Positions 3,797 to 33,214 of a stretch of DNA of 64,000 nt are shown here, piece after piece. Made by a program: the position numbers and the translations under genes. Each line of letters opens with the position of its first letter. Position 1 is the stretch's first letter. Source of the stretch: Candidatus Buchananbacteria bacterium (GTDB lineage: Bacteria > Patescibacteriota > Patescibacteriia > 2-01-FULL-39-33); the NCBI GenBank assembly GCA_903859075.1, contig CAIOLF010000046.1:20671-84670 (forward strand), read 5' to 3'. Under the pieces are notes generated by a model. The model was given only the letters and a program-made list of their open reading frames with translations. It made no database searches and had not been told where the DNA came from.

Positions 3797-3803
3797 AAAA
3801 AAC

Positions 3804-3836: not shown

Positions 3837-4262
3837 CAAACTGGCCATTGGCGGCAAACTGGCCCTGGGGCCCGGCCGCTTAGGCAAGACGAGAGCAAAC
3901 ATTGGAGCCACTCCCTTCTTTTTGAGGCCTAGCTGGTCGGCCGCTCCTTCGGAAATATCGAGATCCCTTTCTGGCTTTGACGGACCTCGGTCATTGATCC
4001 TGACCTTGCAAAACCGCCAGGTTGACAGGTCAAGCCAATTTTCCGAGTAAAGCAGAAGTACCTCCGTATCAAACTGCAGCGTGCGGGACGCCGCAGTATA
4101 GCCGGCGGGAAAAAACTCCTCACCGCTGGCTGTCTGGGTCCCCTGCCTGTACCAGCTTACCACTGACACTGGCGGCAGAAGCTTCGAGATTGGCCGCGTA
4201 GCAGCAGTGCCACCTCCGGGCACCAGCTGCGTTATGGCCAACAGCAACACTAGATGCGTCAT
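3810..4262 (-). CDS. RlpA-like double-psi beta-barrel protein (septal ring lytic transglycosylase family), secreted
   Basis: Motifs SWYRQG..TASGE..TAASRTL..VRINDRGP..DLDISEGAADQLGL match RlpA DPBB. The start was moved to the internal ATG at 4262 (MTHLVLLLAITQLV signal peptide), which has GGAGG 7 nt upstream. The 198-aa ORF-track start at 4406 has no RBS. Confidence 0.7.
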   Translation of the reverse strand: MTHLVLLLAITQLVPGGGTAATRPISKLLPPVSVVSWYRQGTQTASGEEFFPAGYTAASRTLQFDTEVLLLYSENWLDLSTWRFCKVRINDRGPSKPERDLDISEGAADQLGLKKKGVAPMFALVLPKRPGPRASLPPMASLPMLASHDS

Positions 4263-4486
4263 CGACTTACCTCCATGCTCGGCCGAGGCCTCAAATATAC
4301 GAAAAAACATCTCTACAAACCTTACCGTGAAGGAATGCTTTTGGGAGTCGTTTTCTACTTCGAAGCCGGCTAAGGAAATTGGCTGAAGTCCGCGACGAGC
4401 GAACAATCAGCAACACTGCAAGCTTACGTAAGGAACGTTATAAATGCTAAAATAACTGCCGTAATTATAAACGATTTTTGGCCTCG

Positions 4487-4514
4487 TGTCAAGATGCAAT
4501 TTATCTGCTATAAT
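4487..4514 (+). promoter_or_regulatory. putative sigma-70 promoter (TGTCAA-16-TATAAT) upstream of the small basic protein gene
   Basis: Hexamers read directly, 30 nt upstream of ATG at 4545. Confidence 0.35.
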
Positions 4515-4544
4515 TAAACTGACTAAATAATAACTTTAAACAAT

Positions 4545-4817
4545 ATGCCTATCTCCAGAAAAACCGCTGCCAAAAAAAGCGCAGCTGGTAAAATGGCCGC
4601 CGAAAAAGCAGCGCCGATCCGCGGCCAGGTTGCCGTCGACGGCTTCAAAAAAATCGGCGATGACTTAGTCGCCGCCCTCAAAGAGGTACGCAGTCGCTAC
4701 CAAAAATTGGACAAAGACACCAAGAAAAAAATCATCACCGGCGTGGCCGGTACGCTGGCGCTTTTAGCCGGCATCCGCGCCGTAAAAAAGATGGCCAAAA
4801 GAAAGAAGAAAAAATAA
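4545..4817 (+). CDS. small lysine/alanine-rich basic protein with a C-terminal hydrophobic segment; function unknown
   Basis: 90-aa ORF followed by a strong terminator; composition AKKSAAGKMAAEKAAP...KRKKKK. Confidence 0.5.
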   Translation: MPISRKTAAKKSAAGKMAAEKAAPIRGQVAVDGFKKIGDDLVAALKEVRSRYQKLDKDTKKKIITGVAGTLALLAGIRAVKKMAKRKKKK

Positions 4818-4835
4818 AGAAAGCAAGTTTCCCAA

Positions 4836-4868
4836 AGACCCTCCTGGTTTCAGGAGGGTCTTTTTTAT
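4836..4868 (+). terminator. rho-independent terminator
   Basis: agaccctcctg-gtttc-caggagggtct followed by TTTTTTATT. Confidence 0.8.
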
Positions 4869-5072
4869 TGCCGTCCAAATAAGCGAATGTCCCTTATTAT
4901 TTAAAAAAATATGCCCCTATCATGGTGCATAATTAGGCCATTTGACCATTTATTTTTAGTATGTTAAAACTATTGCAGTACCTACTAAATCGGTTAGAGA
5001 GCGAGGTTTGAATGACTTCGCATGGCATAGAAGACATAGGAGTAAGTATTGACGGAAAGGAGAGACTGTGTT

Positions 5073-6113
5073 ATGGCAGCTAAGAGCCTAACGGCCATTG
5101 TGAAAAATCCAGCCGAAGCGCCACCATCGCTGCTGACGCCGAGGCAAATCCAAAGCTTCCTGCGACGTCTGGGAACGGACAAAGAGAGACAATTGCAAAC
5201 CTTGGCCAGAATGGCGGAAACCATGCTCGCCAATCAGGTCAAGCAACGGGCGATCTTGGAAGGACGGCGGACCAAGCTGGAAAGAAAACTGACGCAAATC
5301 CGGCTGGGTCTAAGAGAAACCGGGCGTAATGAAAGGAGAATCACCCGGCTCATCAACGGCCAGGCGGCCAAGCCGCCCGAGGCCGAAGTTAAGCCCGCGG
5401 GCAAAGCCAGCCGCAAACCGCCGGTGAAAAAGAAAGTTACGAAACGCAAGATCAAAAAGCGACCGCCAAAAATCCCGCGGACGCGTAAAGCGACGGGAGC
5501 GGGACCGCGAACCGGAAGCAAAAACGAGTCCCTGTTCAATGAGATTGTCCGTCACGGCAGTAAAGGAATCGCTTCCTCTGAGTTGGTGGATTTCGCAGTC
5601 ACGGATGAGACCATCAATCCGAAACACGAGGAACGCTCAGTAGTCGCCACGCGCGTCTTCGCCATGATCCAATCGCTGCGTGAAGCGGAACTGATTGAGA
5701 ACGTCGGTGAAACGCACAAGGCCGTCTGGCGCAGCACGACAACGGCGGAAGCCAAGGCGCCAAAGCCGGACGAGCAAGCCGACGGGCGGAATGTCCGACC
5801 CCCGAAGCAATCGAACTTGGGTGCTCCGCCAGCCCAGAAACCCACCGAATTGCGGGAACTGAGACAGTCCTTCCTCAACGCACTCCTGTGCGGGAAAAAA
5901 AAAGGGCTGATCCTCGACCGGATCGTCAAGGCGGTCAAAGAGTCGGATCACTCCGGCTTTATGACCGCGGACAAAGATGATGATGAGATCCGTATCGAGG
6001 TCGGCCAGTTCTTGCGAATGAACCGCCCAAATTACGCTTGCGACGCCAAGCTTCCAGAGCATTGGTGGGTCAAGGAGGAAGCCCCTTACCCTTTTGCCAA
6101 AGACCGGAAGTAG
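5073..6113 (+). CDS. hypothetical protein with a Lys/Arg-rich central segment (GC-rich, about 60-65% GC)
   Basis: ORF-track start TTG at 5049 replaced by ATG at 5073, which has AAGGAGAG 10 nt upstream. Contains KPPVKKKVTKRKIKKRPPKIPRTRK. No motif recognised. Confidence 0.55.
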   Translation: MAAKSLTAIVKNPAEAPPSLLTPRQIQSFLRRLGTDKERQLQTLARMAETMLANQVKQRAILEGRRTKLERKLTQIRLGLRETGRNERRITRLINGQAAKPPEAEVKPAGKASRKPPVKKKVTKRKIKKRPPKIPRTRKATGAGPRTGSKNESLFNEIVRHGSKGIASSELVDFAVTDETINPKHEERSVVATRVFAMIQSLREAELIENVGETHKAVWRSTTTAEAKAPKPDEQADGRNVRPPKQSNLGAPPAQKPTELRELRQSFLNALLCGKKKGLILDRIVKAVKESDHSGFMTADKDDDEIRIEVGQFLRMNRPNYACDAKLPEHWWVKEEAPYPFAKDRK

Positions 6114-6670
6114 ACCCGCTCCGCCTGATCCGGCCAATAAACGTGGAGCAGGTGCAGCCGCTATTTCCGTTACTGATCAAGCTGTTCGACCATTGGCTTA
6201 CCTTCCAGCAACTGCTAGAAGTAGCCAAGGCCTACGCGCCGGAAGTCGGCTTTGACTTGAGTTCAACTTCGTCGACCCTAATTGACAATGGCTTCCGACT
6301 GGCCATCGCTAAGTACTCTTTATATGAGGACGAGAACGGCATCGTCAAGCCGATGCGCGTTACTGAGAGGCCAACGCCCGCTAAACGTCCGCGCGCGCAA
6401 CAAACCACGATGGAGAAGAATCTCGTAGAAGACGATGATGGCTGGGAGCAAGTTATCCTGGAAACCGTCAAATACGAAGGGCCGATTTCCACCGACGATG
6501 CCAAAGAGCGAATCCGTGATCAAGGCGGGTCCGATTCGTGGCTCATCCCGAAGGATACGGAGGATGGCGAAATCGAGGACAAGGTCGGTGAGGCAATCGA
6601 CCGACTAGATGGCCGAGGTCTGATCGAAACCGATCCTGATGGAGGAGGATGGGTCATTAGAGAACAATAA
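6038..6670 (+). CDS. hypothetical protein with an acidic C-terminus (GC-rich); start uncertain
   Basis: 210-aa ORF overlapping the previous gene by 76 nt in a different frame. The true start may be GTG near 6143, or the pair may be one gene with a frameshift. Confidence 0.4.
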   Translation: MRRQASRALVGQGGSPLPFCQRPEVDPLRLIRPINVEQVQPLFPLLIKLFDHWLTFQQLLEVAKAYAPEVGFDLSSTSSTLIDNGFRLAIAKYSLYEDENGIVKPMRVTERPTPAKRPRAQQTTMEKNLVEDDDGWEQVILETVKYEGPISTDDAKERIRDQGGSDSWLIPKDTEDGEIEDKVGEAIDRLDGRGLIETDPDGGGWVIREQ

Positions 6671-6676
6671 TTATCC

Positions 6677-6745
6677 AGCTCGAAAACGCAAGTTTTTGAG
6701 CTGTTTCTTTTTTTTGCAAAAAAAAGGATCAGCCATAGCCGATCC
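6677..6745. terminator. pair of convergent terminators between 6670 (+) and 6775 (-)
   Basis: cagctcgaaaac-gcaa-gtttttgagctg then a T-run (plus strand). ggatcagccatagccgatcc is followed by a T8 run when read on the minus strand. Confidence 0.55.
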
Positions 6746-6774
6746 CAAACATACCCTATCCGAAAAAAACATCT

Positions 6775-7263
6775 TTAGAAAATGCTATCTTCCAACTCGT
6801 AATCCTCCACCGTGCTTCCGCCAGCATTGTAGTAAAACGTTCCCCTGACTTTTCGACCATTGAGTACGACTGGCAACCAAAGCGGATCAGCGGGCCACAT
6901 CTCGTCTTTTACCTGAAGCAGCTCTTCTGCCGTAAACCAGCGAGGTTCACCCATTTCCTCAGTTTCCCTCGACTCCCCCTTCCAGTGCCGGCAAATGAAG
7001 ACGTGCATTTGTCTCACTAGGCTATCACCGACAAAATGGAACTCTAGCTCGGCCGCCTTTTGCAACTGCAAAGGACTAATCTCCACCTCCGACTCCTGGG
7101 CGGTTTCCCTGATAGTTGCCGCTTCGATGGTCTCTCCCGGCTCAACTTTACCGCCGTAACCGTTCCACTTGCCGGCACCCCAACCGCGAAGCTTCTTAGC
7201 CAAGGCAACTCGGCCATCGCGGCAGAGCAGGCACAGCGTCAGAATCTTCTTTTCTTTTGCCAT
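6775..7263 (-). CDS. NUDIX hydrolase (MutT-like)
   Basis: Nudix box GGKVEPGETIEAATIRETAQESEVEI. Start set at the internal ATG (MAKEKKIL) with AAAGGAGG upstream, not the longer ORF-track start. Confidence 0.8.
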   Translation of the reverse strand: MAKEKKILTLCLLCRDGRVALAKKLRGWGAGKWNGYGGKVEPGETIEAATIRETAQESEVEISPLQLQKAAELEFHFVGDSLVRQMHVFICRHWKGESRETEEMGEPRWFTAEELLQVKDEMWPADPLWLPVVLNGRKVRGTFYYNAGGSTVEDYELEDSIF

Positions 7264-7368
7264 ATGTTTGATTCCTCCTTTCTTGGGCTCATCATAATAC
7301 AGGCCCGCTCTTTTGGCAAGGGCTCGTTTTGGAAGCAAAAATATGATAAAATGACTGTATAATAGTTA

Positions 7369-8064
7369 ATGGAATATATGAAAAACATCATCACTTTGCT
7401 AATCATCTTGGCTCTGGGACTCTTTATCGGCCAAGCCGCTCTGGCGCATCAGCCGCGCCTAGTCACCGTGAGCGGTCCGATTACTGTCAGTAATCCGGAA
7501 ATCTCCCAGGCCTTTTATGGCGAGCTCAAAGAAGAGCCGGCCACTTATATCATTAAATCAACAAAATCATTCAAGCTATACCTGAATCTCTTGACTCCCG
7601 ACATCACAGGAGCCCGCGAAGATTTTTCCGCGCAAGTGGATTATGAAGACAGCACCAAGGTAAAGAAAAAATTGTTATTTCTTGACGGACAAAACACTTC
7701 TTGGAGCTATATGTATGAGGAATATGCCGGCGACGGCTACTTCAAGGGTCCGGAAGTCAGAGCCGATGCCTATGCCGGCATTTATACCATTAAAGTTTTT
7801 AATCCTGATAATCAAGGTAAGTATGTGTTAGCCGTCGGTGAAACAGAATCTTTTCCGCTGACTGAAATGATAAAAACCTTGATTTTGCTGCCACGGCTTA
7901 AGGCCGACTTCTTTGGCAAACCCTGGTGGACATTCTTATTCAACCAAATTGGAGTTTATGTTTTGTATCTGGTAACAATAGTTGCCGTAGTAATCGCCGT
8001 CATTATTTACATTGTTAAAAAAATAAAACGGAAAAAAGACAAAGCCGCCGAGATCAAAGAATAA
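7369..8064 (+). CDS. secreted protein with N-terminal signal peptide and C-terminal TM anchor; function unknown
   Basis: 231 aa; signal-like MKNIITLLIILALGLFIGQAALA, C-terminal hydrophobic helix plus KKIKRKKDK tail. Confidence 0.6.
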   Translation: MEYMKNIITLLIILALGLFIGQAALAHQPRLVTVSGPITVSNPEISQAFYGELKEEPATYIIKSTKSFKLYLNLLTPDITGAREDFSAQVDYEDSTKVKKKLLFLDGQNTSWSYMYEEYAGDGYFKGPEVRADAYAGIYTIKVFNPDNQGKYVLAVGETESFPLTEMIKTLILLPRLKADFFGKPWWTFLFNQIGVYVLYLVTIVAVVIAVIIYIVKKIKRKKDKAAEIKE

Positions 8065-8083
8065 AAAATGGTAATCGGAGTTA

Positions 8084-8112
8084 TTGCCAAACTTTATTAA
8101 AATTGCTAGAAT
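8084..8112 (+). promoter_or_regulatory. putative sigma-70 promoter (TTGCCA-17-TAGAAT) for cfa
   Basis: Hexamers read directly, 28 nt upstream of ATG at 8140. Confidence 0.45.
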
Positions 8113-8139
8113 ATCGCCATAATTAATCAGTCAAAAAAT

Positions 8140-9258
8140 ATGTCTGCAGGCCTAAAAAAATGGATCAATCAAGTGATTGAGCCGACCGGCATCCGGCTAG
8201 ACGGCCCCAATCATTGGGATCCGCAAATTAAAAACCCCAAACTTTACGATCGCGTCAAGGCGGAGGGATCGCTGGGACTTGGCGATGCTTACGTGGACGG
8301 CTGGTGGGAGTGCGAGCGCCTGGATGAATTTTTCCATCGGCTACTTTCAATAAACATTCATGAGCGCCTCGGGCTATCGCTGCCTATTATCCTAGGATTT
8401 TTAAAAGCCAAGCTGATCAATATGCAAGGAGTGCGGCGCGCTTTCCAAGTCGGCGAGAAGCATTACGATACCGGCAATGACTTGTTTGTCGCCATGCTCG
8501 GGAAAACCATGGCTTACAGCTGTGGCTACTGGAAAAACGCTTCCACTTTGGACGAGGCGCAGGAAGCCAAGCTTGATCTGATCTGCAAAAAATTATATTT
8601 GCGGCCGGACATGAAAATCTTAGATATCGGTTCCGGCTGGGGCAGCCTGGTCAGGCACGCCGCCAAAAATTACAACGTCAGCGCCGTGGGCCTCACTGTT
8701 TCTAAAGAACAAGCTAAATTGGCGACTGAATTGTGCACCGGACTGCCGGTGGAATTCCGCTTGCAAGACTATCGCACCTTAAATGAAAAATTCGACCGGG
8801 TGATTTCCGTCGGCATGTTTGAACATGTGGGAGTGAAAAATTACCGCACTTACATGGAAGTGGCCAAGCGCTGCTTGAAGCCGGACGGCCTCTCAATGCT
8901 CCATACTATTGGCAGTCTCAAATCCGGCAACAGCACCGATCCCTGGATCGGCAAATACATTTTCCCCAACGGCCAACTGCCGTCGGTCAAACAGATTGCC
9001 ACCGCCGCGGAAAAAATCTTTGTCATTGAAGATCTGCATAACTTCGGAATCTATTACGATAAGACATTGATGGCTTGGAAAGAGAATTTTGAAACCGCCT
9101 GGCCGCAGCTCAAAAATAGTTACAGCGAAAAATTCTACCGTATGTGGCGGTATTACCTGCTCTGTTGCGCCGGCGCCTTCCGCGCCCGCTCCATCCAGCT
9201 CTGGCAGATAGTGCTTTCGCCTCATGGAGTTCCTGGGGGCTACGATTCCATCAGATAG
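8140..9258 (+). CDS. cfa: cyclopropane-fatty-acyl-phospholipid synthase (SAM-dependent methyltransferase)
   Basis: 372 aa; aligns by eye along its length with Cfa (HYDTGNDLF..., ILDIGSGWGSL, VGLTVSKEQ, FDRVISVGMFEHVG, PNGQLPS, YYLLCCAGAFRARSIQLWQIVL). Confidence 0.9.
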   Translation: MSAGLKKWINQVIEPTGIRLDGPNHWDPQIKNPKLYDRVKAEGSLGLGDAYVDGWWECERLDEFFHRLLSINIHERLGLSLPIILGFLKAKLINMQGVRRAFQVGEKHYDTGNDLFVAMLGKTMAYSCGYWKNASTLDEAQEAKLDLICKKLYLRPDMKILDIGSGWGSLVRHAAKNYNVSAVGLTVSKEQAKLATELCTGLPVEFRLQDYRTLNEKFDRVISVGMFEHVGVKNYRTYMEVAKRCLKPDGLSMLHTIGSLKSGNSTDPWIGKYIFPNGQLPSVKQIATAAEKIFVIEDLHNFGIYYDKTLMAWKENFETAWPQLKNSYSEKFYRMWRYYLLCCAGAFRARSIQLWQIVLSPHGVPGGYDSIR

Positions 9259-9263
9259 ATTTT

Positions 9264-9290
9264 AAAAGACGCCCGACCGGGCGTCTTTTA
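9264..9290. terminator. bidirectional rho-independent terminator
   Basis: aaaagacgccc-gacc-gggcgtctttt. Confidence 0.8.
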
Positions 9291-9338
9291 AAATTAAACA
9301 AAAAATGCTAAAATAAAATTAGCAATATCTAAGTCATT

Positions 9339-11330
9339 ATGGCTAAAAATCAAAAATCAGCTTTTAAATACCAGCTTTATTTAGCCGGCGGCATTGGCAT
9401 TTGGAAAGATTTTTTCAAGCCAAAGTATTCAGAATTTTTTAATAAAAAAGTTTATTTATTCGAGCCGGGATCTTTAGGCGGACCCAGTGATCACCGCTTT
9501 ATGCCCATTGGCATTGCCTGCTATGACCTCAATGAAATCAACCACGCTGATGCCTTGCTGGTGTATATGAAAAAGTACCGACCGGCTGACGGGTCGCCGA
9601 CCGGCACTGACAGCACCTGGGAATGCGGCTATGCCATCAGCCAGAGCAAACCAATAATTATGCTGATCGAAGATTTGGATCATTTGGATTATTACAATTT
9701 GCAGTGGATGGTAAGCTTTAGCATTAATGCGGTGCTGACCACTGATGAAAAAGTCGCCGAGACCTGCCGCAATCATCCTAAATTCGTCCACACCACCGTA
9801 TTATATGCTCCTTCAAAAAACCAACTGGAATCTAAAATTATTGAATATCTGACAAACTACTACCGCTCGATTTATTCCCGTTCCGGAATCATTAACTATC
9901 AAGTTGATGAGAGAGCCAGAGATTTATTCGGGGAAAAACGTTTGGCGGAAATGACCTTTACTGAAACAACGGCTGATAAGACTATTTATAAATTATTGAC
10001 TGGGCTAAAACAATGCCGATTTAATAATGACTCCGATTATCTTAAAGTTTGCGAAATAGAAAGAAAAGTTTCCGCTCATCTCCGGAACCGACTAACAGAA
10101 AAAAACATCAACTCAGCTTTAGCCGCCGTAATCAAGCATTGGGCCCCAAAAAAAGAAAATATAGTCAGTATTCTAAAACATTCCATTGTGCCGCCGTTTT
10201 TAAAGATCAAAAATCGACATGCCGGCATCATAAAAACTCGCCCGGAACTATTTTTTGAACTCTATGACCTGGTTAATCATCATCTGATTAGAGAGCAAAA
10301 GTTTATTAAAGATCCAGATTTCCCTTATGAAATGGGAGCAATTATTGAGTTGTATAATTGGATGAATACTTATAGTCTCGATGACACCTTCGATAGCTCT
10401 GATTATCGACAAAACATCCCAACAGTCTGGAAACAATTCGGCCGCCGGAATGCTATTTTTACCGGACTTACCGGGCATTTATTAGCCCTAAAATACTTAT
10501 TTTTAATAGCTCGTCCCAAGCCGCAACTGGCCGAGAGATTGGCGGGAATTTTAAATGATTACAATGAATTAATGTATCAAGGCCAAGTTCTGGATTTGAA
10601 ACTGACTTTTAGTTCCAGCCAAAAGAAAAAACTTTTAAATAAATTGGGACTGCGAGCCATCTGCAAGTTATATATCAAAAGAATTTACGGCATTTGCGGC
10701 GGCTTTTATGAAGCCGTCGGCGAGCTGGCCGCCCAGGCCGGAAATAAAGAAGCCCAGGTTCTTAATGGCAAGCAAATTGATAAAATTTCTCCCTTAATAG
10801 GCTTGTACTATGGCTTGATCCAAATGATCAGAAATGATCTGGCTGATTACTTGGTGATTGAAAAAATTAGCGGCATGAGCCACAGTATGAAGGGCATTTC
10901 GCATTCCGATATTAAAGAAGGCAAAATCGATCTGCCTTACTCCATCGCTTTTTATTCATCGAAACTTGATAAAAAAGAGAAAAGATTTCTCTTTACGGCA
11001 TTAGCCGATAAAGAGCTATCCGCTAAAGATAAGCTTCATATCAATGAACTACTTTGGAAATCAGGAGCCATTGATCTGACTGTTGATTTGATAATTAATT
11101 TGGCCAGTCACGTCAAAACTACCTTGCTGACAGAATACCAAGAAACTCCGACTCGCATGAAATGGATGTTTAGCCTGGTCGACATCACCAAAGAAATTCT
11201 AATTCCCTTTAAGAGTTTGGCCTTAAGCCATGGCTGGGTAAAATATCAATACGACCGTAAACTACTTAGAACAATAAGCGATCTGATATTACAACTGGAA
11301 TCAACTCCTCGCCCAAAAAGAATTAAATAA
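9339..11330 (+). CDS. two-domain fusion protein: N-terminal nucleoside 2-deoxyribosyltransferase/LOG-like Rossmann domain, C-terminal trans-polyprenyl diphosphate synthase-like domain
   Basis: N-terminus YLAGGIG...GTDSTWECGYAISQSKPIIMLIED (NDT-like catalytic Glu context). C-terminus LDDTFDSSDYRQNIPTVWKQFGRRNAIFTGLTGHLLALKYL (FARM-like DDxxD..RRG.PT.H..FG), YQGQVLDL (GQxxDL), GLIQMIRNDLADY (degenerate SARM, NDxxD). Confidence 0.65.
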   Translation: MAKNQKSAFKYQLYLAGGIGIWKDFFKPKYSEFFNKKVYLFEPGSLGGPSDHRFMPIGIACYDLNEINHADALLVYMKKYRPADGSPTGTDSTWECGYAISQSKPIIMLIEDLDHLDYYNLQWMVSFSINAVLTTDEKVAETCRNHPKFVHTTVLYAPSKNQLESKIIEYLTNYYRSIYSRSGIINYQVDERARDLFGEKRLAEMTFTETTADKTIYKLLTGLKQCRFNNDSDYLKVCEIERKVSAHLRNRLTEKNINSALAAVIKHWAPKKENIVSILKHSIVPPFLKIKNRHAGIIKTRPELFFELYDLVNHHLIREQKFIKDPDFPYEMGAIIELYNWMNTYSLDDTFDSSDYRQNIPTVWKQFGRRNAIFTGLTGHLLALKYLFLIARPKPQLAERLAGILNDYNELMYQGQVLDLKLTFSSSQKKKLLNKLGLRAICKLYIKRIYGICGGFYEAVGELAAQAGNKEAQVLNGKQIDKISPLIGLYYGLIQMIRNDLADYLVIEKISGMSHSMKGISHSDIKEGKIDLPYSIAFYSSKLDKKEKRFLFTALADKELSAKDKLHINELLWKSGAIDLTVDLIINLASHVKTTLLTEYQETPTRMKWMFSLVDITKEILIPFKSLALSHGWVKYQYDRKLLRTISDLILQLESTPRPKRIK

Positions 11331-11359
11331 AAATCCCTCCGCCGCGGCGGAGGGATTTT
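11331..11359. terminator. bidirectional rho-independent terminator between convergent genes
   Basis: aaatccctccgcc-gcg-gcggagggattt, with an A-run on one side and a T-run on the other. Confidence 0.8.
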
Positions 11360-11362
11360 AAG

Positions 11363-11956
11363 TTATTGTTTTCTTTTTATTTCCAGCCAATCCGGTACCG
11401 GAGTAAAAGTAATTTCTTCCAAATGATCTATTTCTTCCTCGGTGACTTCATAATACTTTTGATAAGCCGTTTCCACGCTGCCATGCAGCGCCTCATTCCA
11501 ATCAAAGCCCAGCTTAGCGGCGACCGACCGCACATTTTCTTCCGTCTCCGCCTCAAGCTCCACAAAAGGCGGTATCCACGGCCAGGTGTCAATCGTCACT
11601 TCACAGCCGCTTAGCTCCCACGTTTCGCGCTTAGTCTCCTGATAGGAGCGGCAATCCAGTCCCGTGGCCAAGAGAAAGTCGCAAGCGGCGTCAAAATTAT
11701 CGACATTAAAAACTATTTCCTTCGTCCCCTGAAAAGTCCGGTCAACTAACCGCTTGTAGCTCATCGTAATCTTTTTGCCTTCATCCCGTACTCTGATCCA
11801 GGCGCCGATTTTCTCCAGGCGTTTATCAGAATAATCAAAAATCTTGCGTCGCATCAACACCTCCGCTTGGACTAGAGTCCCGCCATGACTTTTCAGCGCT
11901 TCCCGTAATTGCCGCGGATTAACGTCTAAGAATTTTGCTTCAACTTCAGTCTTCAT
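11363..11956 (-). CDS. CYTH-domain protein (triphosphate tunnel metalloenzyme family)
   Basis: 197 aa; N-terminal EVEAKF (ExExK signature), size and acidic-residue pattern typical of CYTH. Confidence 0.75.
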   Translation of the reverse strand: MKTEVEAKFLDVNPRQLREALKSHGGTLVQAEVLMRRKIFDYSDKRLEKIGAWIRVRDEGKKITMSYKRLVDRTFQGTKEIVFNVDNFDAACDFLLATGLDCRSYQETKRETWELSGCEVTIDTWPWIPPFVELEAETEENVRSVAAKLGFDWNEALHGSVETAYQKYYEVTEEEIDHLEEITFTPVPDWLEIKRKQ

Positions 11957-11958
11957 AG

Positions 11959-12822
11959 TTACTTTAGAATAATTTTTATTAATAAATCATTAATAAAATC
12001 AAAATCACCATCGCCGGTAATTACCGCATCAAACTTTTCTCTGTAAAGCTGCAGATTTTCTTCAATATTCTTATTTAAAAATCCGACCTTAATCAGATTA
12101 TCATAATTAAAACCGGTAATCATCTCCACGTCGTCCGAACCGTCGCCGAGTAGCAAGACATTTTTTCTTTCCTTGACCTTATCATAAAAAGAAAAATTGT
12201 CCAGCACGGTTTCTTCCTTATTAAAGGCATGAATAATCGGCTCCCTGACGGCAATTGCTCGACCGGCATCGTCCCAAATGAATTCATTAGAGACAATATA
12301 AACATTATCTGAAAGCAAATTCTGCCGCTTAAGATACAAAGAAATCGACTCTACTCCTAAACCGCTGGAAGACATAATCACCAAAGGAATGTCGCGCTCT
12401 CTTAAAAACTCAAAAAACTGCGCCACTCCCGAACGTAGCTGCAATCTTTGCGAGGTGATGGCTCGCTCAACATCTTTTTTCCGCAGGCCGGAAGCGATCA
12501 GCAGATCAAAATGCCTGGACCACCACTGCCGCATGGCCTCACGCTTTTCCGCGTGAGGCACTGACGGATCAATCTCGATCGCGTGATAATAATTGAACAA
12601 TTCTTTGGCTTTATCCGGATAGTCGGGCGTCAGATAGCCCTCGCTGCGCAAGACGGAGATTATTGAAGGCACTTCCTCCCCCGCCACAAACATCTTGGTA
12701 AGCGTACGATCAAAATCCGACAGAACGTGGAGTTTTTCCGCTCCGCCGATACTAATCGCTCTTTTAATCGACTCCAGACGCTGAGAATTAGAAATAATAA
12801 TATCTCCGGTCATATTAATCAT
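11959..12822 (-). CDS. HAD-superfamily pyrimidine 5'-nucleotidase-like protein (UMPH-1/cN-III family)
   Basis: 287 aa; motif I VLSDFDRTLTK, later LLLGDGSDD. Three bp downstream of the CYTH gene, so in an operon. Confidence 0.7.
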   Translation of the reverse strand: MINMTGDIIISNSQRLESIKRAISIGGAEKLHVLSDFDRTLTKMFVAGEEVPSIISVLRSEGYLTPDYPDKAKELFNYYHAIEIDPSVPHAEKREAMRQWWSRHFDLLIASGLRKKDVERAITSQRLQLRSGVAQFFEFLRERDIPLVIMSSSGLGVESISLYLKRQNLLSDNVYIVSNEFIWDDAGRAIAVREPIIHAFNKEETVLDNFSFYDKVKERKNVLLLGDGSDDVEMITGFNYDNLIKVGFLNKNIEENLQLYREKFDAVITGDGDFDFINDLLIKIILK

Positions 12823-12830
12823 TAATTAAA

Positions 12831-13349
12831 TTAGGATTTAATAATTTTTAAATCGCTGACATCCAGACTGCCGCGATACAAAATGTGAGCCACGCCGTGA
12901 AAGGGCAGGACTTTTTGTCCCGCACTGACGGCCTTGGCATAATAGTCCGTGGCGTTCTCCGACAGTTCGGCCAGATCGGCGACTAACTTTGGATCAAACG
13001 GCTTGAATTCATCGGGCTCAATTTTATTGTCTTCCCGCCGATAAAGATAAATCACCGCCCGGTGGCTATCAATGATTTCTAAAGGGACTTCAAAAAAGTT
13101 TTCCCGGAAAGGATGGCCGAGCTTGAGCAAGGCCTCCTTGATTTTTGTCGGATGAACCGCGCTGAAATGCAGTACGTCATTCCAAAGGCAATTAAGGAAA
13201 GGGATGATTTCTTGCAATAGATATTCCCGGCCCTGATATTTTTTTACTGCCGCTTCATAGATCTCCGGGTTAATCTTTTCCATGACATTTAGCGGATAGA
13301 GGATATTGCCCGACATATTGGTCGGGACTTTATGATAAATAAAAGCCAT
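12831..13349 (-). CDS. hypothetical protein, first gene of the nucleotidase/CYTH operon
   Basis: 172-aa ORF, 8 bp upstream of the nucleotidase gene. No motif recognised. Confidence 0.55.
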   Translation of the reverse strand: MAFIYHKVPTNMSGNILYPLNVMEKINPEIYEAAVKKYQGREYLLQEIIPFLNCLWNDVLHFSAVHPTKIKEALLKLGHPFRENFFEVPLEIIDSHRAVIYLYRREDNKIEPDEFKPFDPKLVADLAELSENATDYYAKAVSAGQKVLPFHGVAHILYRGSLDVSDLKIIKS

Positions 13350-13431
13350 ATTTTTTGTGATTATCTGCCCTAATTATAGCTCAATCGGCCCGGCCAGACA
13401 AGCTGAAAAGAAAAGACCGCCAAACGCGAAG

Positions 13432-14163
13432 TCAGCGGTCCAGGAAAAATGCCAGCAAGGCGACGACCAGCAGTATCATCAGATTATCGTCGAGGTAAAA
13501 CCTGGAGAGCTGATGCGCTACCGGACTGGGAAAACAGCGCCGAAGCCGCGAAGTAAGCGGTCTGCACCAGCCGACCCAGCTCGGAGTGTAGGTCTCTGCC
13601 AGTGCGACGGTTACGCTGATGATAAAGATGTTGGCAGCATCTAATCGGCTGCCCAGGAATGCTGCTACTCGGCTCATGACCAAATAACTGACCAAAGCGA
13701 ATACCAGCAATCCCAAGCCGCGGGAGCTGTTGACGCCCCAGCGCGACAGACGATAACGCGCCCAAGCGGCGGCCGGATCTGCCAGGCCTAGAACCATCAC
13801 GGCCATCACCAGGATTGATTCTTTGATGGGCCCCAACCAGACGCCGGTCATCAGTAAGGAGGCTCCCAGCAAATAGTAGGTGCTGGCGGTAAACCTCTGA
13901 TGTTCATGCTCACGCAGAATAAACCGGAATATTGACATCTTGATAAACCGCTCATTGTGGCGCGGGCTTTGATGCCGGACCAAGTCCATCAGCAAAAACA
14001 CTGCCGTCATCATCCAGGCGATGCCGGTGAGCATTGCCAAGGGATTAGCCGGCATCCCGCAGATGTCCCTAAGTCCCCGCCACCAGTAAAAGACGGCGAG
14101 CATTAGAAGACATCCCGAGATATGCCAGATCTTTCGGATCCAGTTGAACTCGTAGATAACCAA
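13432..14163 (-). CDS. integral membrane protein, polyprenol (dolichol/phytol) kinase-like CTP-transferase family
   Basis: 243 aa, 6-7 TM helices. GLADPAAAWARYRLSRWG resembles the G(D)GLAD..GR.(F)G motif of Sec59/VTE5-type kinases. TTG start with AAGGAGGA upstream. Confidence 0.45.
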   Translation of the reverse strand: MVIYEFNWIRKIWHISGCLLMLAVFYWWRGLRDICGMPANPLAMLTGIAWMMTAVFLLMDLVRHQSPRHNERFIKMSIFRFILREHEHQRFTASTYYLLGASLLMTGVWLGPIKESILVMAVMVLGLADPAAAWARYRLSRWGVNSSRGLGLLVFALVSYLVMSRVAAFLGSRLDAANIFIISVTVALAETYTPSWVGWCRPLTSRLRRCFPSPVAHQLSRFYLDDNLMILLVVALLAFFLDR

Positions 14164-14286
14164 GGTGCTATCCTCCTTCTTTTACTGAGTTTGCTTCACT
14201 CTGCCAGTTTCTCTACTTCGGATTATAGACCAAAGGATATTAATTTTCAACTGTGATCAAATAAGCTTATTTTAACAGCTATATTA

Positions 14287-15519
14287 TTAACAGACAAAGG
14301 TCAGCGCTTTGCCCATTTGGTCGCCACGGCCGGTCCGGCCGATGCGATGGACATAATCGTCATAGGTAGCCGGGACATCATAATTAATCACGTGGCTGAC
14401 GTTGGGAATATCCAGGCCTCTGGCGGCGACATCGGTCGCTACCAGAATTTTGGTTTTATTCTCTTTAAATAATCTTAAGGCCGCTTGGCGCTTGCTTTGG
14501 TTCTTGTTGCCATGAATGGCGTCCGCTTTAAAGCCCTTTTGAATCAGACCAACGGATAATCTCTCCACGCCGAATTTGGTCCGGCCGAAAACCAACACTT
14601 TGGTGAATTCCGGCTTGGCCAAAAGATTATGCAGGACGCTTATTTTTTCGTGCTCGTGGCTGATTTTGATAATGTCCTGATCGACATTCTTGGCAGTGTC
14701 TCCGGTCTTGACGGAAATCGTCACCGGGCTGGTTAAAAATTCTTTGACTAGCTTATCAATTTCCCGGCTGACGGTAGCGGAGAAAAATAAGGTCTGGCGA
14801 GTAACCGGCATCAGCGACATGATAAATCTCATATCATTGACAAAGCCCATATCCAGCATGCGGTCGGCTTCGTCAAGCACTAAAGTGGAAAATCTTTCCG
14901 GACGGATCAAGCCGCGCTCGATCAGATCCTTGAGCCGGCCCGGCGTGCCAATGACAAAATTATAGCCGCGGCGCAAATCGGAAATCTGGCGGCCGATGGA
15001 AGCGCCGCCGACGCAGCAGACGGAAAAAATCCTCAATCGTCCGCGGAACGCAATCAATTCTTGATTGATCTGATCAGCCAATTCATGAGTCGGTACGATG
15101 ATTAAAATATTTTCCCGGTTATCCAATATGACTTTATGAAGCAATGGCAAAAGAAAAGCCGCCGTTTTGCCGGTGCCGGTATTGGCAACACCGACCACAT
15201 CGCACCCCTCCAGAATCGCCGGAATCGTCTGGTCTTGGATCGGGGTGGGAGTGACATAACCTTTGGTGACAATATTTTCTTTCAATCTTTGATCAATAGC
15301 AAAATCAGCGAAAGCATGTTGCGGCTGATAGGGCTTGGATTCGGTTTGGGGCTTGGCTTTGCAGACAAACCGGGAGCAATCAATATATTGATCGCGAAAA
15401 CCGCCGCGTCTGGCAAGCGGTCTTTTTCCTCCAAAAGACGGCCGGCCGCTTGAAGCGGCTAAGCGGCGTCTAGGAGAACGGCCGAGGCGAGAGCCCCGTC
15501 CGAAATTCCTGGTAGACAT
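14287..15519 (-). CDS. DEAD-box ATP-dependent RNA helicase
   Basis: 410 aa; Q-motif region, GTGKTAAF (motif I), VLDEADRMLDMGF (DEAD box), SAT, HRIGRTGRG (motif VI). Unusual RG-rich N-terminal extension. Confidence 0.9.
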   Translation of the reverse strand: MSTRNFGRGSRLGRSPRRRLAASSGRPSFGGKRPLARRGGFRDQYIDCSRFVCKAKPQTESKPYQPQHAFADFAIDQRLKENIVTKGYVTPTPIQDQTIPAILEGCDVVGVANTGTGKTAAFLLPLLHKVILDNRENILIIVPTHELADQINQELIAFRGRLRIFSVCCVGGASIGRQISDLRRGYNFVIGTPGRLKDLIERGLIRPERFSTLVLDEADRMLDMGFVNDMRFIMSLMPVTRQTLFFSATVSREIDKLVKEFLTSPVTISVKTGDTAKNVDQDIIKISHEHEKISVLHNLLAKPEFTKVLVFGRTKFGVERLSVGLIQKGFKADAIHGNKNQSKRQAALRLFKENKTKILVATDVAARGLDIPNVSHVINYDVPATYDDYVHRIGRTGRGDQMGKALTFVC

Positions 15520-15755
15520 GAGTTAGGTTTTAATTTTTAGCTTTAAAGCAGACAGGCCACCGGCCATTCATAAATTTCCATCAAAGCTAAATAATTAAAG
15601 CTAGAGTTAAGAAATGCCTGAATTGGGATTTCTTAAAATGGAACTAAATGAGATATACTTTAAGAACTTAAGTATAGCACGCATTAATGTTTTTGTCAAT
15701 TTAAAAACCTCCGCCGGGAGATTTTTGTATTAAATTGACTCAATTGGGCGGCTAT

Positions 15756-16842
15756 TTAAAACAGGTTTGAATTTACCAGCAGTTGCGTTTTCTGGACGCT
15801 GTTCTGATAAATTAGGCGGCTGGCAGCGGAGATAAACGGCCGATTGACAATTTTTTCATTATTTTGAAGATAGTCCAGCATTTTTTGCGGCGTCTTTTTC
15901 AGGATGTTCATCATGGAGTTGAAACTGGCGGCAGAATACATAGAAGTGAAGTCCAAATCATTAAACAGGCCAAGGATTTTGTTTTTATGATAAAGTTGAT
16001 GATCATTGAAAGCCCAATTGTCATGGATGGCGATATAATTAGAAATCTTGTTAGCCAAGCGCTTCGGGTAATTCACTTGCCTTAAAATCTTTTTAGCGAT
16101 TTGTTTGCCGGCTTGCATATGGCTTTTTCTGGAATCGCTGGCAAAGGGACTGTCTATCTTAGCCGCGCTATAACCCACGTCATGCAGCAGGATAAACGGA
16201 ATAAAAATCTGTTCCTCAATATTTTCCTGCTTGGCCAGCAGCAAGCTCTGCTTAATGAGCCATTCAATATGTTTTTCCGTATAGTCCTGTCCCTGATGAT
16301 TGTATCTTTTAGCTAAACGCCAAATCTTGTTATAAATTTCCGGCATAGGGTAGCTCTGCCAATCATGGGAAAAAGTATCTTCGGCATTCTCCAGATAATT
16401 ATTTTCATAAATAAGCTTTTGCCATTTATCAATAATATTTTGGTCAAAAATGTTGCCGATCATTACCTCGCAGCAGACATCATCCTTATCTTCCGGCATA
16501 ATAACCTGGCCATCCGGATTAATCATAAAATAAGCATTGGCTCTCTGGCGCCTGGGGGAGATAATAATATTTATCTGCCGGCCATAGGCGGCCATAATCT
16601 TTTCCGACTCGGCCAAAAAAGTTTTTTCATCAATTAATAATTTTTTTGATATCCGATCGCAGTAGCGGCTCACCGCCGGTAATAGTGATGGATTTGACTC
16701 CCTTCTTTGCCAGCAAAGAAAAAACTTTTTGCAGTTGTGAAAAATCCAATTCCGGAATATTCTTGGGGCCATAGCAAAAATCGCAATCCTTGGTGCAACG
16801 GGAGGTAACGCGGAAAGTGACGATTTCCGGGAAATGGTCCAT
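15756..16842 (-). pseudogene. radical-SAM (CX3CX2C) / HD-domain protein interrupted by a single-base frameshift in an A7 run; either a pseudogene or a homopolymer sequencing error
   Basis: ORF 16630-16842 (RCTKDCDFCYG, GGEPLL) stops after DIKKIIN. Removing one A from aaaaaaa at 16641-16647 reads DIKKLLIDEKTFLAE and continues into ORF 15756-16772, which carries an HD motif (H..IPFILLHDVGY, later H and D). Confidence 0.55.
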
Positions 16843-16927
16843 AAATAAACTTAATTTAAGTACATAATACTCCTTTTTCTGGCCGATGTTAATGCCCGTT
16901 TTCCCCTTTTTAAATCTACAAGCAATA

Positions 16928-16956
16928 TTGACAAAATGGCATTATCATAGTAATCT
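16928..16956 (+). promoter_or_regulatory. putative promoter with exact -35 TTGACA, 17-nt spacer and weak -10 TAATCT
   Basis: Read directly; 46 nt upstream of ATG at 17002. Confidence 0.3.
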
Positions 16957-17001
16957 CTGAGGTAAGAATTGATAGCGGAGAATCAACGAGGAGGGATCGC
17001 C

Positions 17002-17613
17002 ATGTCGCCATTTTATAGAAATACGCATGATGTTGAGGTAGGGTCGCTTATTGCCAGTGGTATTGCCACGAACGAACAACATGCGGAACGAATCCTGAAA
17101 GAAACAAGCAAGCGGAGGGAGCGGGCCGATCTGTACATTTTCTATACTAATCGCCACGTAGTCAAAACGTGCCTAGCGACACGTCCTGTCGATGAACGGC
17201 CGTACAACGGCTCAAATGTCCGGGTAGCCACCATTCCTTCGGGATCAATGAGTCGGATCGGAAAACTCCCGGGATTAACCAGCTCGTTAGCGATTGGCGC
17301 GTTGAAGGAGCTCGTCCCGAAAGCCGAGCTTGCCCAGGAAGCCACCGGTCAGGGAATCAAGCTGGTGGCCTTCGTGAGGAACTTCCAAATTGACGGCAAA
17401 TTAGGCGTCTTCCTGAGCTCCACGTCAGCCGAAGCCATTCACGCTCAGGGAAGGAAGACCCTTGATGAGAAAGAAAATCTGCTTCGCGTAGAATTCTCTC
17501 TCATCGGCGGCGATTTTGTTCTGGGCATGTTCAGCGCCTGGAACCAGCAGCCGTTTGGCGATAGCGTTTCACTGGTTCTGTGGATGCCCAGGTCGCAGAC
17601 CATCGCCTTGTGA
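17002..17613 (+). CDS. hypothetical protein (GC-rich)
   Basis: Start moved to ATG at 17002 (MSPFYRN), which has GAGGAGGG upstream. About 58% GC. No motif recognised. Confidence 0.5.
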   Translation: MSPFYRNTHDVEVGSLIASGIATNEQHAERILKETSKRRERADLYIFYTNRHVVKTCLATRPVDERPYNGSNVRVATIPSGSMSRIGKLPGLTSSLAIGALKELVPKAELAQEATGQGIKLVAFVRNFQIDGKLGVFLSSTSAEAIHAQGRKTLDEKENLLRVEFSLIGGDFVLGMFSAWNQQPFGDSVSLVLWMPRSQTIAL

Positions 17614-17774
17614 ATCAGAAACGACTGCCGCGGATCATTGACGACAAATAAGCCAAGGATTATTTCCTCTGGCTTTTCTTTTTTTATGTAAAAATCTCTC
17701 CCAAAAGCATCTCACGGAAACTAGAAAATGTTGCAAACAGTGTCAGAAAAAATAATTATTGGCCTAAGCTGCCA

Positions 17775-17803
17775 TTGACATAGACTAAATATTATACTAT
17801 GAT
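17775..17803 (+). promoter_or_regulatory. near-consensus sigma-70 promoter TTGACA-17-TATGAT upstream of the S51 peptidase gene
   Basis: Hexamers read directly; the gene start at 17878 has AGGAGGGGG upstream. Confidence 0.5.
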
Positions 17804-17877
17804 AGCTTATCGAACATTTCGCCATACAAGCAACCGCAAATCCAACCGCAAATCGCCCAAACAGGAGGGGGCTGATA

Positions 17878-18651
17878 ATGAAGACTCACGGCAAGAGAAA
17901 TATAGTAGCTATTGGTGGCGGACAAGTATTCGTGCCCTGCAAGCCGCCGGAAACCTTGGCCATTGACGGGTACATCGTCCGCCTGGCCGAGGAGAATTTG
18001 TCGCTAAGCCGGCAACCAAGAAAGCCGCGCCTACTATTTGTCCCAACGGCCAGCGGAGACGACCTTTTGTACTGCAACACCATCTACAATTTGTACGAGT
18101 TGCGTCTCGGCTGCCAGTTCGACCACCTGCGCCTTCTGGCCGAACGCCTGACTGACCAGGAAATCCGCCAGAAAATAAGCTGGGCCGACATTATTTACGT
18201 CGGTGGCGGCAACACCTACCGGATGATGCGAGCCTGGCGACGCCGCGGCGTCGGCCAACTGCTCATCGCTGCCTATAACTCCGGCACGGTGATGTGCGGA
18301 CTTTCCGCCGGAGCGATCTGCTGGTTTGACTCCGGCGTCAGCGACTCGCGCAAGGAGTCCAATCCCACCGATTGGAAACCGATTCTGGTGAAGGGACTGG
18401 GGCTGATACCGGCCGTTTGCTGCCCGCATTATGATTCGGAAGGAGAATGGCGCAAGTCGGCTTGTGAAGATCTGCTGCGGCGCCACCCCTCTCTCCCGGG
18501 CATTGCCTTGGAAGATCTCTGCGCGCTGCAAGCCATCGATGGCAGTCAATACAAAGTGATCTCGCCCGCCGGCAAAAAATGTTACCATTTATCCTGGCAA
18601 GAGGGTCTCTTTGTTCCCCGCAGAATCGCCGAGGAGAAAATCAAATCATAG
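17878..18651 (+). CDS. peptidase S51 family protein (dipeptidase E / cyanophycinase-like)
   Basis: 257 aa; YVGGGNTYRM and GLSAGAI motifs typical of S51 serine peptidases. GC-rich. Confidence 0.7.
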   Translation: MKTHGKRNIVAIGGGQVFVPCKPPETLAIDGYIVRLAEENLSLSRQPRKPRLLFVPTASGDDLLYCNTIYNLYELRLGCQFDHLRLLAERLTDQEIRQKISWADIIYVGGGNTYRMMRAWRRRGVGQLLIAAYNSGTVMCGLSAGAICWFDSGVSDSRKESNPTDWKPILVKGLGLIPAVCCPHYDSEGEWRKSACEDLLRRHPSLPGIALEDLCALQAIDGSQYKVISPAGKKCYHLSWQEGLFVPRRIAEEKIKS

Positions 18652-18658
18652 TAGTATC

Positions 18659-18696
18659 CGCCGTTGCCGCCACTTAGGGCCGCAACGGTTTTTTTA
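18659..18696 (+). terminator. rho-independent terminator
   Basis: ccgttgccgcc-acttaggg-ccgcaacgg followed by a T7 run. Confidence 0.7.
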
Positions 18697-19005
18697 TTGA
18701 TTTTTAACAATATTAGGTATAGTATTTAAACATCATATGGAAAAATTTGATTCGCAAAAACATCTCCAGCTTGCCAGCCATTTGCCTTTTTCTTATTATT
18801 CCCTGCCTTTATACCTGGACTTCTCCGCTTACTTACTGCCCCGGAATAATGAACGAGTGATCGTAACGCAAGACCTTTATTACCCGCATGAATTCCCGGC
18901 TATTTTCTTGCCCCAAAATCCAGAGAATTGGGATAATTTTATTTTTCCTGGGTGGGCTTTGTGATATGCTCAGAACTTTAGAACTGTCTAAAATAGACAA
19001 GGAGC

Positions 19006-20385: not shown

Positions 20386-20426
20386 ATATCTCTATTTTAC
20401 CATTATATTAATGAATCTCAAACCGC

Positions 20427-33211: not shown

Positions 33212-33214
33212 AAA

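Follow-up and report, generated by a model that had tools for sequence, protein, structure and literature searches.

An NDT-like domain fused to a divergent trans-isoprenyl diphosphate synthase fold in ultra-small uncultured lineages: a candidate enzyme of prenyl-nucleobase metabolism

The window analyzed here, a stretch of DNA of 64,000 nucleotides, encodes a 663-residue protein (9339..11330, + strand) in which an NDT-like domain is followed by a helical linker and then by an ND-type trans-IPPS-fold domain, as seen from the open reading frame, Pfam matches, homologues and an AF2 model (pLDDT 87.2, pTM 0.86). Such a fusion was noticed in the initial annotation, where its architecture was called non-standard, and both points are borne out. 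Conservation of the fusion extends over 34 non-redundant loci (40–83% identity), so the halves are not separate genes in all relatives, and literature searches on the fusion architecture, on the pairing of NDT with UbiA and on isoprenoid fusions in the CPR found nothing relevant; the architecture is non-standard and uncharacterized. Full-length homologues number 59 as clusters at 90% identity and three at 50% identity, the latter among 1.84 billion representatives, and they are found only in MAGs of ultra-small uncultured lineages labeled Patescibacteria or archaeon, the CPR assignment resting on these homologue names. CPR bacteria and DPANN archaea are host-attached and have a minimal metabolism, and function is assigned to very few of the enzymes specific to these lineages; the fusion forms a well-defined and strongly conserved two-domain enzyme with a readable active site in each part. 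The best explanation, which taken as a whole is tentative, is that the gene product is one soluble two-domain enzyme with both halves in the same pathway, and we cautiously propose that it couples prenyl transfer to an N-glycosidase reaction so as to produce or process a nucleobase or nucleoside carrying a prenyl group, the two activities probably working together.

The N-terminal domain (residues 1–180; 9339..9878, + strand) has the Rossmann-like, flavodoxin-like alpha/beta fold of the NDT family. In HMMER alignments to 2a0k and 8rh3, E95 (codon 9621..9623, + strand; motif GTDSTWECGY) falls at the position of the nucleophilic Glu of NDT catalysis, and Y14 in strand 1 and D71 in strand 3 match the active-site Tyr and Asp. 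E95 is invariant in the alignments of both the fusion family and the N-domain clade, the three residues are invariant or at least 90% conserved, and together with D91 and W94 they form a set that is invariant or nearly so. Many aromatic residues are also invariant in the N-domain clade (W22, F26, Y30, F41, W94, Y98, Y118, Y119, and W123). The fusion protein itself scores below the cutoff of PF05014 (23.6 bits versus 28.8, E = 6e-5); its stand-alone N-domain relatives, which are 37–53% identical, exceed that cutoff (31.6–44.4 bits), and a precomputed PF05014 match is present in many of the fused homologues. The initial annotation had assigned the domain to an NDT/LOG type, of which the NDT part stands and the LOG part does not, since a Pfam search of the fusion protein gave no match to the LOG/lysine-decarboxylase-like PF03641 at E ≤ 1, LOG structures are absent from the top 50 fold matches of the model, and the loop reads P-T-G-T-D-S-T-W-E where LOG has PGGxGTxxE. 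Compared with the NDT-family N-glycosidases NDT/PTD, DNPH1/Rcl and MilB/BlsM/BcmB (PF05014, PF15891), to which it is 14–19% identical, the domain has an additional beta-alpha unit (residues 131–181), a GTDS loop ahead of the nucleophile, and a Trp just before the Glu. The N-terminal half is thus best explained, on its conserved residues, as a predicted, catalytically intact N-glycosyl hydrolase or transferase of the NDT family, with Glu95 the likely nucleophile.

The helical region that follows (residues 181–290; 9879..10208, + strand) consists, by AF2 secondary structure, of extra linker helices and the first helices of the synthase fold, and shows the lowest conservation in the protein (alignment columns 201–300). 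The trans-IPPS-fold core (residues 291–663; 10209..11327, + strand) carries motif I (GIIKTRP), FARM, GQxxD, altered KT, altered SARM and motif VI in an all-alpha isoprenoid-synthase fold, and the profile search proposed for this half returned PF00348 (polyprenyl_synt) above its curated cutoff (48.4 bits versus 27, E = 9e-13, residues 331–557). All NCBIfam equivalog models fall far short of their cutoffs, the best being NF041169 (42 bits versus 450), while the GGPPS, FPPS, and SPS models give 12–17 bits against cutoffs of 380–600. The FARM is a canonical DDxxD (DDTFD; 10380..10394, + strand) in which D348, D349, and D352 are invariant among 31 aligned sequences. The SARM (RNDLAD; 10830..10847, + strand), already described as degenerate in the initial annotation, has R498, N499, and D500 invariant and D503 nearly so, with Asn499 in place of the first Asp in all 31 aligned family members. 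Two further losses accompany it. In the altered KT motif (RIYGICGGF; 10680..10706, + strand), GICGGFYE aligns with GKTGALFE of the GGPPS 1wy0, so that Lys becomes Ile452 and Thr becomes Cys453, both invariant, and the RRG after the FARM becomes R357-Q358, with RS instead of RQ in one subclade; it is the second of the two Arg in RRG that contacts IPP in ternary complexes of E. coli FPPS. Three canonical catalytic or ligand residues (SARM Asp1, KT Lys, and the second RRG Arg) are therefore replaced in every member, and this systematic alteration makes non-canonical prenyl chemistry a reasonable proposal. In the protein of the window specifically, the motif-I Lys298 is also replaced, by Ile. The domain is only 13–20% identical to trans-IPPS enzymes (FPPS/GGPPS/long-chain, PF00348; 9jqs, 6kd7, 1wy0), from which the fusion also differs by about 110 extra helical residues, the NDT-like N-terminal domain and an ETPTRxKW motif. 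By its motifs, the C-domain is assigned to a wider "ND-type" clade defined by SARM Asp to Asn, loss of the KT Lys and RRG to RQ; when an ND-type C-domain profile was run in a word-indexed search, most matches were to the fusion family or to ordinary synthases.

The ETPTRMKW motif near the C-terminus (11142..11165, + strand) is specific to the fusion family and is not invariant in stand-alone ND-type relatives. P604 and K608 are invariant in the fusion-family alignment and E602, T603, T605, R606, and W609 are at least 90% conserved; residues 601–620 around it are modeled at lower confidence (pLDDT 69–72), and the motif is possibly a lid or an interface. A reading of NDLADYLVIE as the NSE/DTE motif of terpene cyclases was rejected on spacing and on the model, as position 5 is Asp rather than Ser or Thr, the Glu falls one place late, at position 10 and not 9, and the model helix ends at residue 502.

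Both domain clades are associated genomically with isoprenoid enzymes. Stand-alone N-domain relatives adjoin UbiA prenyltransferases in four of five loci, an IPP isomerase is fused to one member of the ND-type clade, and an IPP isomerase lies directly downstream of the fusion at one locus. Two independent lines of genomic evidence, fusion and operon adjacency, thereby link one domain clade to prenyltransferases, and in this that clade differs from the characterized NDT-family members, for none of which we know of a link to a prenyl enzyme. The cytokinin-like prenyl-nucleobase idea of the initial annotation is possible and gains indirect support from the UbiA genes beside stand-alone N-domain genes and from the IPP isomerase fused or adjacent to the C-domain clade.

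The C-terminal half is a complete trans-IPPS fold of a divergent clade. It retains the site for an allylic diphosphate and Mg (FARM DDxxD, R357, GQxxD, D500/D503, K518, D524, and K529), and the residues replaced at SARM Asp1 (Asn499), KT Lys (Ile452), RRG (RQ) and Lys298 (Ile) serve canonical synthases for the third Mg and the incoming IPP. The folds of both halves, their conserved catalytic residues, the conservation of the fusion and the genomic association of both clades are observations; the scheme built on them is inferred in its substrates, order of steps and product alike. In it, the C-terminal half would ionize a short allylic diphosphate, with DMAPP the likeliest, and hand the prenyl group on to an acceptor that replaces IPP or is used besides it. 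The N-terminal half would act on the bond between base and ribose in a nucleoside or nucleotide, either cutting it or exchanging the base, with Glu95 as nucleophile, helped by Tyr14 and Asp71, which are aligned with NDT catalytic positions, and by the invariant Asp91. Either the glycosidase would free a base that the prenyl domain then alkylates, or the prenyl domain would alkylate a nucleotide from which the glycosidase releases the prenylated base, the latter by analogy to IPT plus LOG.

In cytokinin synthesis, IPT transfers a dimethylallyl group to a purine nucleotide, LOG is an N-glycosidase that frees the prenylated base, and fungal IPT-LOG fusion proteins exist. The logic is that of the favored model, but this is an analogy only, as both folds differ: IPT is a P-loop enzyme rather than an IPPS-fold one, and LOG, not detected in the fusion, is a separate family of the wider superfamily. 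Chrysanthemyl diphosphate synthase, a plant enzyme derived from and closely related to FPPS that catalyzes the irregular coupling of DMAPP with DMAPP, has NDxxD for its SARM, the same single change of the first Asp to Asn as in the fusion family, within a site that is otherwise FPPS-like, but it retains KT and RRG and has no N-terminal domain. A precedent for non-canonical prenyl chemistry is provided by the all-alpha-helical IPPS-fold prenyltransferases with a pseudo-SARM, Ord1/XiaM (acting on indole) and ComQ (acting on Trp of ComX) (PMC12510300). These are single-domain enzymes of actinobacterial or Bacillus pathways without a sequence-level relationship to the two-domain fusion beyond the superfamily, and the SARM change is different (DDxxA in Ord1, NDxxD in the fusion family).

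If the prenyl-nucleobase chemistry holds, it would be a new enzymatic solution joining isoprenoid and nucleotide metabolism, and both the wider ND-type clade and the UbiA–NDT-like gene pair would gain their first assigned function. A broader extension, which we consider unlikely, is that the fusion family and the UbiA-linked stand-alone N-domain genes represent an unrecognized route to prenylated nucleobases or nucleosides, perhaps host-directed in CPR/DPANN. In such a route, terpene-nucleoside or cytokinin-like metabolites would be produced by a prenyltransferase, either IPPS-fold or UbiA, together with a glycosidase of the NDT family, enzymes whose folds are unrelated to those of IPT/LOG or of the Rv3377c/Rv3378c tuberculosinyl-adenosine pathway, and episymbiotic CPR bacteria and DPANN archaea might use the product at their hosts as a membrane-active or signaling molecule.

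An alternative account, somewhat unlikely in our estimate, is that an ordinary prenyl-diphosphate synthase is joined to an unrelated salvage or regulatory domain with which it shares no substrate. The C-terminal half would be the FPP/GGPP synthase of a reduced genome, condensing IPP normally despite the SARM Asn, the N-terminal half would be a salvage N-glycosidase for nucleosides or nucleotides or a nucleotide-sensing regulatory domain, and their fusion would be accidental or would serve co-regulation in tiny genomes. Were the protein only a GGPP/FPP synthase, SARM Asn and loss of the KT Lys would be compatible with chain elongation, which would be useful for annotation. Against this account are the three replaced residues in every member and the rarity of the family in its few clusters, which argues that it is not the housekeeping synthase of the CPR in general. 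One locus, L011, has besides the fusion an additional gene of trans-IPPS type, a polyprenyl_synt gene 2.7 kb upstream, and a chance fusion leaves the UbiA adjacency of the stand-alone N-domain relatives unexplained.

It is very unlikely that the enzyme makes a ribosyl lipid, with a (phospho)ribosyl-Glu95 intermediate passing its sugar to a prenyl alcohol or prenyl phosphate that is made or held by the synthase-fold domain, or by the UbiA partner in other organisms, to give a prenyl-(phospho)ribose lipid with a role like that of decaprenyl-phosphoribose. The glycosyl-enzyme intermediate of the NDT-family mechanism can be resolved by different acceptors, enzymes binding long, hydrophobic prenyl chains recur consistently as partners, and the invariant N-domain aromatics could line a hydrophobic acceptor site. 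However, we know of no precedent for an NDT-family enzyme with a lipid acceptor, the UbiA partners match generic prenyltransferase models best (NF009516) and no decaprenyl-phosphate phosphoribosyltransferase model is among their matches. Moreover, the synthase domain yields a diphosphate, whereas the acceptor must be a monophosphate or alcohol, and the flanking-ORF analysis of the loci found no conserved phosphatase near the fusion.

The initial annotation also joined the fusion to a convergent operon on the − strand as a local prenylated-nucleotide metabolism or signaling module. This operon begins with a 172-residue hypothetical protein (12831..13349) with no match in Pfam, NCBIfam, PADLOC or PDB, continues with a 287-residue UMPH-1/cN-III-like HAD-IE 5'-nucleotidase (11959..12822; PF05822, E = 6.5e-64; PDB cN-III and cN-IIIB, E about 1e-43) and ends with a 197-residue CYTH-domain protein (11363..11956; PF01928, E = 7.9e-11). 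The genes are adjacent, nucleotide phosphates are the known or predicted substrates of all of them, and the arrangement recurs in one other locus, L048, but that relative is 83% identical and the synteny hence short-range. When flanking ORFs were clustered over the 34 non-redundant loci, 22 of them with at least 1.5 kb downstream, the CYTH, UMPH-1 and 172-residue genes were absent from every other locus with downstream sequence. The convergent units are separated by a strong bidirectional intrinsic terminator (11330..11359) with a 13-bp perfect stem (AAAATCCCTCCGC/GCGGAGGGATTTT), and defense/signaling-system models match none of the four proteins. The CYTH protein and the 5'-nucleotidase are neighbors rather than conserved partners, and the module, largely refuted by this neighborhood analysis, is most improbable.

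Other associations were also rejected. An anti-phage defense system was dismissed as PADLOC models matched neither the fusion, nor the three operon proteins, nor two stand-alone N-domain proteins, and a TrmB regulator upstream of the fusion occurs in too few loci (3 of 20). A NUDIX gene recurs in four loci, and one is present in the window 2 kb upstream of the fusion, but these genes are not one orthologous group; those other than the L011 gene, an IPP isomerase and the only informative case, are MutT-like (15–25% identity). The window is a perfect 30-kb palindrome, probably an assembly artifact, and its other arm holds a mirror copy of the fusion gene (56405..58396, − strand) that encodes an identical protein.

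The open reading frame at 9339..11330(+) is genuine, with an ATG start and 663 codons' worth of protein, and the motif strings that the initial annotation had read in it are all located where it placed them. Its description of a domain resembling nucleoside deoxyribosyltransferase (NDT) or LOG, fused to one resembling polyprenyl diphosphate synthase, proved accurate apart from the LOG part, since no LOG model in Pfam matched even at E ≤ 1. The synthase-fold half (C-domain) matches polyprenyl_synt (PF00348) over residues 331-557 (48.4 bits, gathering score 27, E = 9e-13), and Nuc_deoxyrib_tr matches residues 59-116 of the N-terminal domain (N-domain, residues 1-180) at 23.6 bits, under its gathering score of 28.8 (E = 6e-5). 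The PF05014 gathering score is passed by stand-alone relatives with 37-53% identity to the N-domain, and a profile of the N-domain and its stand-alone relatives matched only NDT-family entries among 177,635 PDB sequences, in alignments that place Tyr14, Asp71 and Glu95 on the NDT active-site Tyr, Asp and catalytic Glu. An AlphaFold2 model computed with 31 homologues is confident (pLDDT 87.2, pTM 0.86). Both domains fall in known superfamilies, and the fusion is publicly annotated as 'polyprenyl synthetase family protein' or 'geranylgeranyl pyrophosphate synthase/nucleoside 2-deoxyribosyltransferase'.

The fusion family has few members and clear boundaries. When 5.8 billion proteins were searched by word index, 59 clusters at 39-100% identity came up, essentially all full-length and fused, with no match between E = 1e-146 and the cutoff, and an exhaustive scan with HMMER, over 1.84 billion representatives at 50% identity, yielded only three full-length clusters (P0004, P0040 and P0060), plus fragments. 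To judge from source names and the titles of MAGs, its members come from Patescibacteria/CPR (Paceibacterota, Parcubacteria, Kazan, Kuenenbacteria, Vogelbacteria and Buchananbacteria), and several bins carry the label 'uncultured archaeon' (fusion-bearing contigs at loci L004, L005, L007 and L011). The family may be common to CPR bacteria and DPANN archaea, or else these bins may be mislabelled. Across an alignment of 31 sequences, conservation is highest in the N-domain, whose invariant residues include D91, W94 and E95 within GTDSTWECGY, and the invariant residues of the C-domain include D348, D349, D352, R357, G415, Q416, D419, R448, G451-G454, Q495, R498, N499, D500, K518, S521, H522, D524, G528 and K529. 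One member (P0007, 724 aa, L001 7794-9968), named 'excisionase' by JGI, is called with an N-terminal extension of ~60 residues that carries an excisionase-type HTH (PF12728), probably an artefact of an upstream start codon or of gene merging.

The C-domain is a non-canonical synthase. In a motif table of the fusion family, E. coli IspA and about 40 distant relatives, the first aspartate-rich motif (FARM), GQxxD, motif I and motif VI are retained, motif I being GxKKTRP, or GIIKTRP in the 663-aa fusion. In the fusion family and in most of its nearest ~350-aa relatives the first Asp of the second aspartate-rich motif (SARM) is replaced by Asn, the KT position is not Lys and a single Arg follows the FARM, whereas canonical enzymes in the table keep DD, KT and RR. 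Compared with Pyrococcus horikoshii GGPPS (1wy0), GKTGALFE has become GICGGFYE and IWDDVLD has become IRNDLGD. In FPPS ternary complexes the third Mg is held by the first SARM Asp, the diphosphate is contacted by the KT Lys and IPP by the second Arg. Set against these roles, the replacements suggest from sequence that the allylic site is largely intact and that the IPP side is altered. All NCBIfam equivalog models of named synthases score far under cutoff for the fusion.

Proteins of ~350 aa that match the C-half alone were found in the exhaustive scan, and P0071, from a Micrarchaeia (DPANN) MAG, is a stand-alone protein of the same ND-type, in which the first SARM Asp is Asn and the KT Lys is lost. 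The distant polyprenyl_synt relatives P0071-P0113, also ~350 aa, have Asn at the first SARM Asp and no KT lysine, several have GEGFN or GQxLN in place of GQxxD, and they form a broad, apparently uncharacterised clade with at least one Micrarchaeia member. In P0137, a natural fusion, a type-1 IPP isomerase (153 bits vs. 127) is joined to an ND-type synthase domain, and at locus L011 a type-1 IPP isomerase gene (TIGR02150, 112 bits vs. 105.8) begins 5 bp after the fusion; the C-domain clade is thus linked to IPP/DMAPP supply. P0137 is 586 aa long, shares a 90% cluster with P0073 and has even more degenerate motifs (GKPKARS, RE, QIAGVF and RNDFMN). L011 is the informative neighbourhood case, and also has a separate polyprenyl_synt gene 2.7 kb upstream of the fusion. 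Its other neighbours look archaeal (an HTH_10 regulator and an ATP-dependent DNA ligase).

The N-domain also exists alone, as proteins of 160-193 aa that match only residues ~10-172 in the exhaustive scan, and in four of five close-relative loci its gene directly adjoins that of a UbiA-family prenyltransferase. UbiA lies upstream on the same strand by 28 bp in L017 and by 21 bp in L051, two UbiA genes occur on the same strand in L019, the nearer one 5 bp upstream, and in L013 the UbiA gene is convergent with overlapping ends; in the fifth locus, L018, the sequence stops at the N-domain gene, leaving no downstream side to inspect. Identity among these stand-alone N-domain proteins is 33-66%, and they share 43-49% with the N-domain of the fusion; the UbiA partners, whose best NCBIfam model is in every case NF009516 (prenyltransferase), are 28-55% identical, so the adjacency has been maintained across deep divergence. 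Occurring as a fusion in one lineage and in operons in others, the N-domain clade is thus tied to prenyl-transfer enzymes. The conserved two-gene unit (L017 5119-6525, L019 599-2899, L051 1366-2754 and L013 114-1275) consists of the prenyltransferase followed by an NDT-like protein of about 170-185 aa. Both L019 and L051 encode a PaaK-like adenylating enzyme nearby, and the surroundings of L019, with an aromatic ammonia-lyase, an LNT and a PEMT-like methyltransferase, look like a small biosynthetic cluster.

The fusion combines two intact catalytic domains, is conserved down to 40% identity, has a second metal/IPP region that is altered clade-wide in the synthase fold, and contains an NDT-like domain whose clade is repeatedly coupled, genomically, to prenyl-diphosphate-using enzymes. 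From these features we tentatively infer that prenyl transfer, putatively from a short allylic diphosphate, would be coupled to breaking or exchanging an N-glycosidic bond, by which a prenylated nucleobase or nucleoside might be made or processed; the substrate could be a nucleoside or a nucleotide. The main alternative, somewhat less likely, is an ordinary FPP or GGPP synthase with a salvage or regulatory domain unrelated to it. In its favour are a structure that resembles true synthases more closely and the IPP isomerase association; against it stand the replacement of three canonical residues, how rare the family is, the additional synthase gene of L011 and the linkage to UbiA. A model of ribosyl-lipid synthesis seems improbable. 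Prenyl-nucleobase chemistry, if shown, would sharply raise the interest of the fusion; a literature search found no paper on the fusion architecture, the ND-type clade or the UbiA–NDT-like gene pair.

The initial annotation had also proposed a module of the fusion with the convergent operon. The operon itself is as described, with three tightly packed opposite-strand ORFs ending 32 bp from the fusion stop codon, and the intergenic perfect hairpin (13-bp stem) scores as a terminator on both strands. Its products are a 172-aa protein with no match in any search, a UMPH-1/cN-III-like HAD-IE nucleotidase (Pfam E = 6.5e-64, PDB cN-III E about 1e-43) and a CYTH protein. The 44 fusion-carrying loci collected reduce to 34 non-redundant ones, with at least 1.5 kb upstream in 20 and downstream in 22, and clustering of all flanking ORFs found no consistent gene-family companion of the fusion among the 34. 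Downstream CYTH and UMPH-1 genes are confined to the window and L048 (83% identical), an upstream cyclopropane-fatty-acid synthase recurs only in L020 and L035 (81-82% identical), and a NUDIX cluster in four loci is heterogeneous. The proposed module is therefore unsupported and highly improbable: its two units converge, have a terminator between them and keep their synteny only over a short evolutionary distance. The nucleotidase (11959-12822(-)) is homologous to the cytosolic 5'-nucleotidase III/7-methylguanosine-phosphate nucleotidase of eukaryotes, with E about 1e-43 to human and Drosophila structures. Its gene is unusual to find in a bacterium, and together with its operon-mates, CYTH and the orphan protein, may be of interest in its own right.

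Positions 3735..64000 of the window form a perfect inverted repeat in which position i pairs with 67735-i, with 0 mismatches over the 30,133 bp compared per arm and no spacer; it is centred between 33867 and 33868 (sequence GGTTCGGACTTAAGTCCGAACC). All genes are mirrored: the fusion has an identical second copy at 56405..58396(-), and a tRNA-His/Arg/Arg cluster lies at both 24212-24482 and 43253-43523. The palindrome most likely arose not biologically but as a fold-back chimera during amplification or long-read assembly. G+C is 0.37-0.40 at 20001-26000 and its mirror 42001-48000, vs. about 0.46 elsewhere, and this low-G+C region contains a PAPS reductase, a PALP enzyme and the tRNA cluster.
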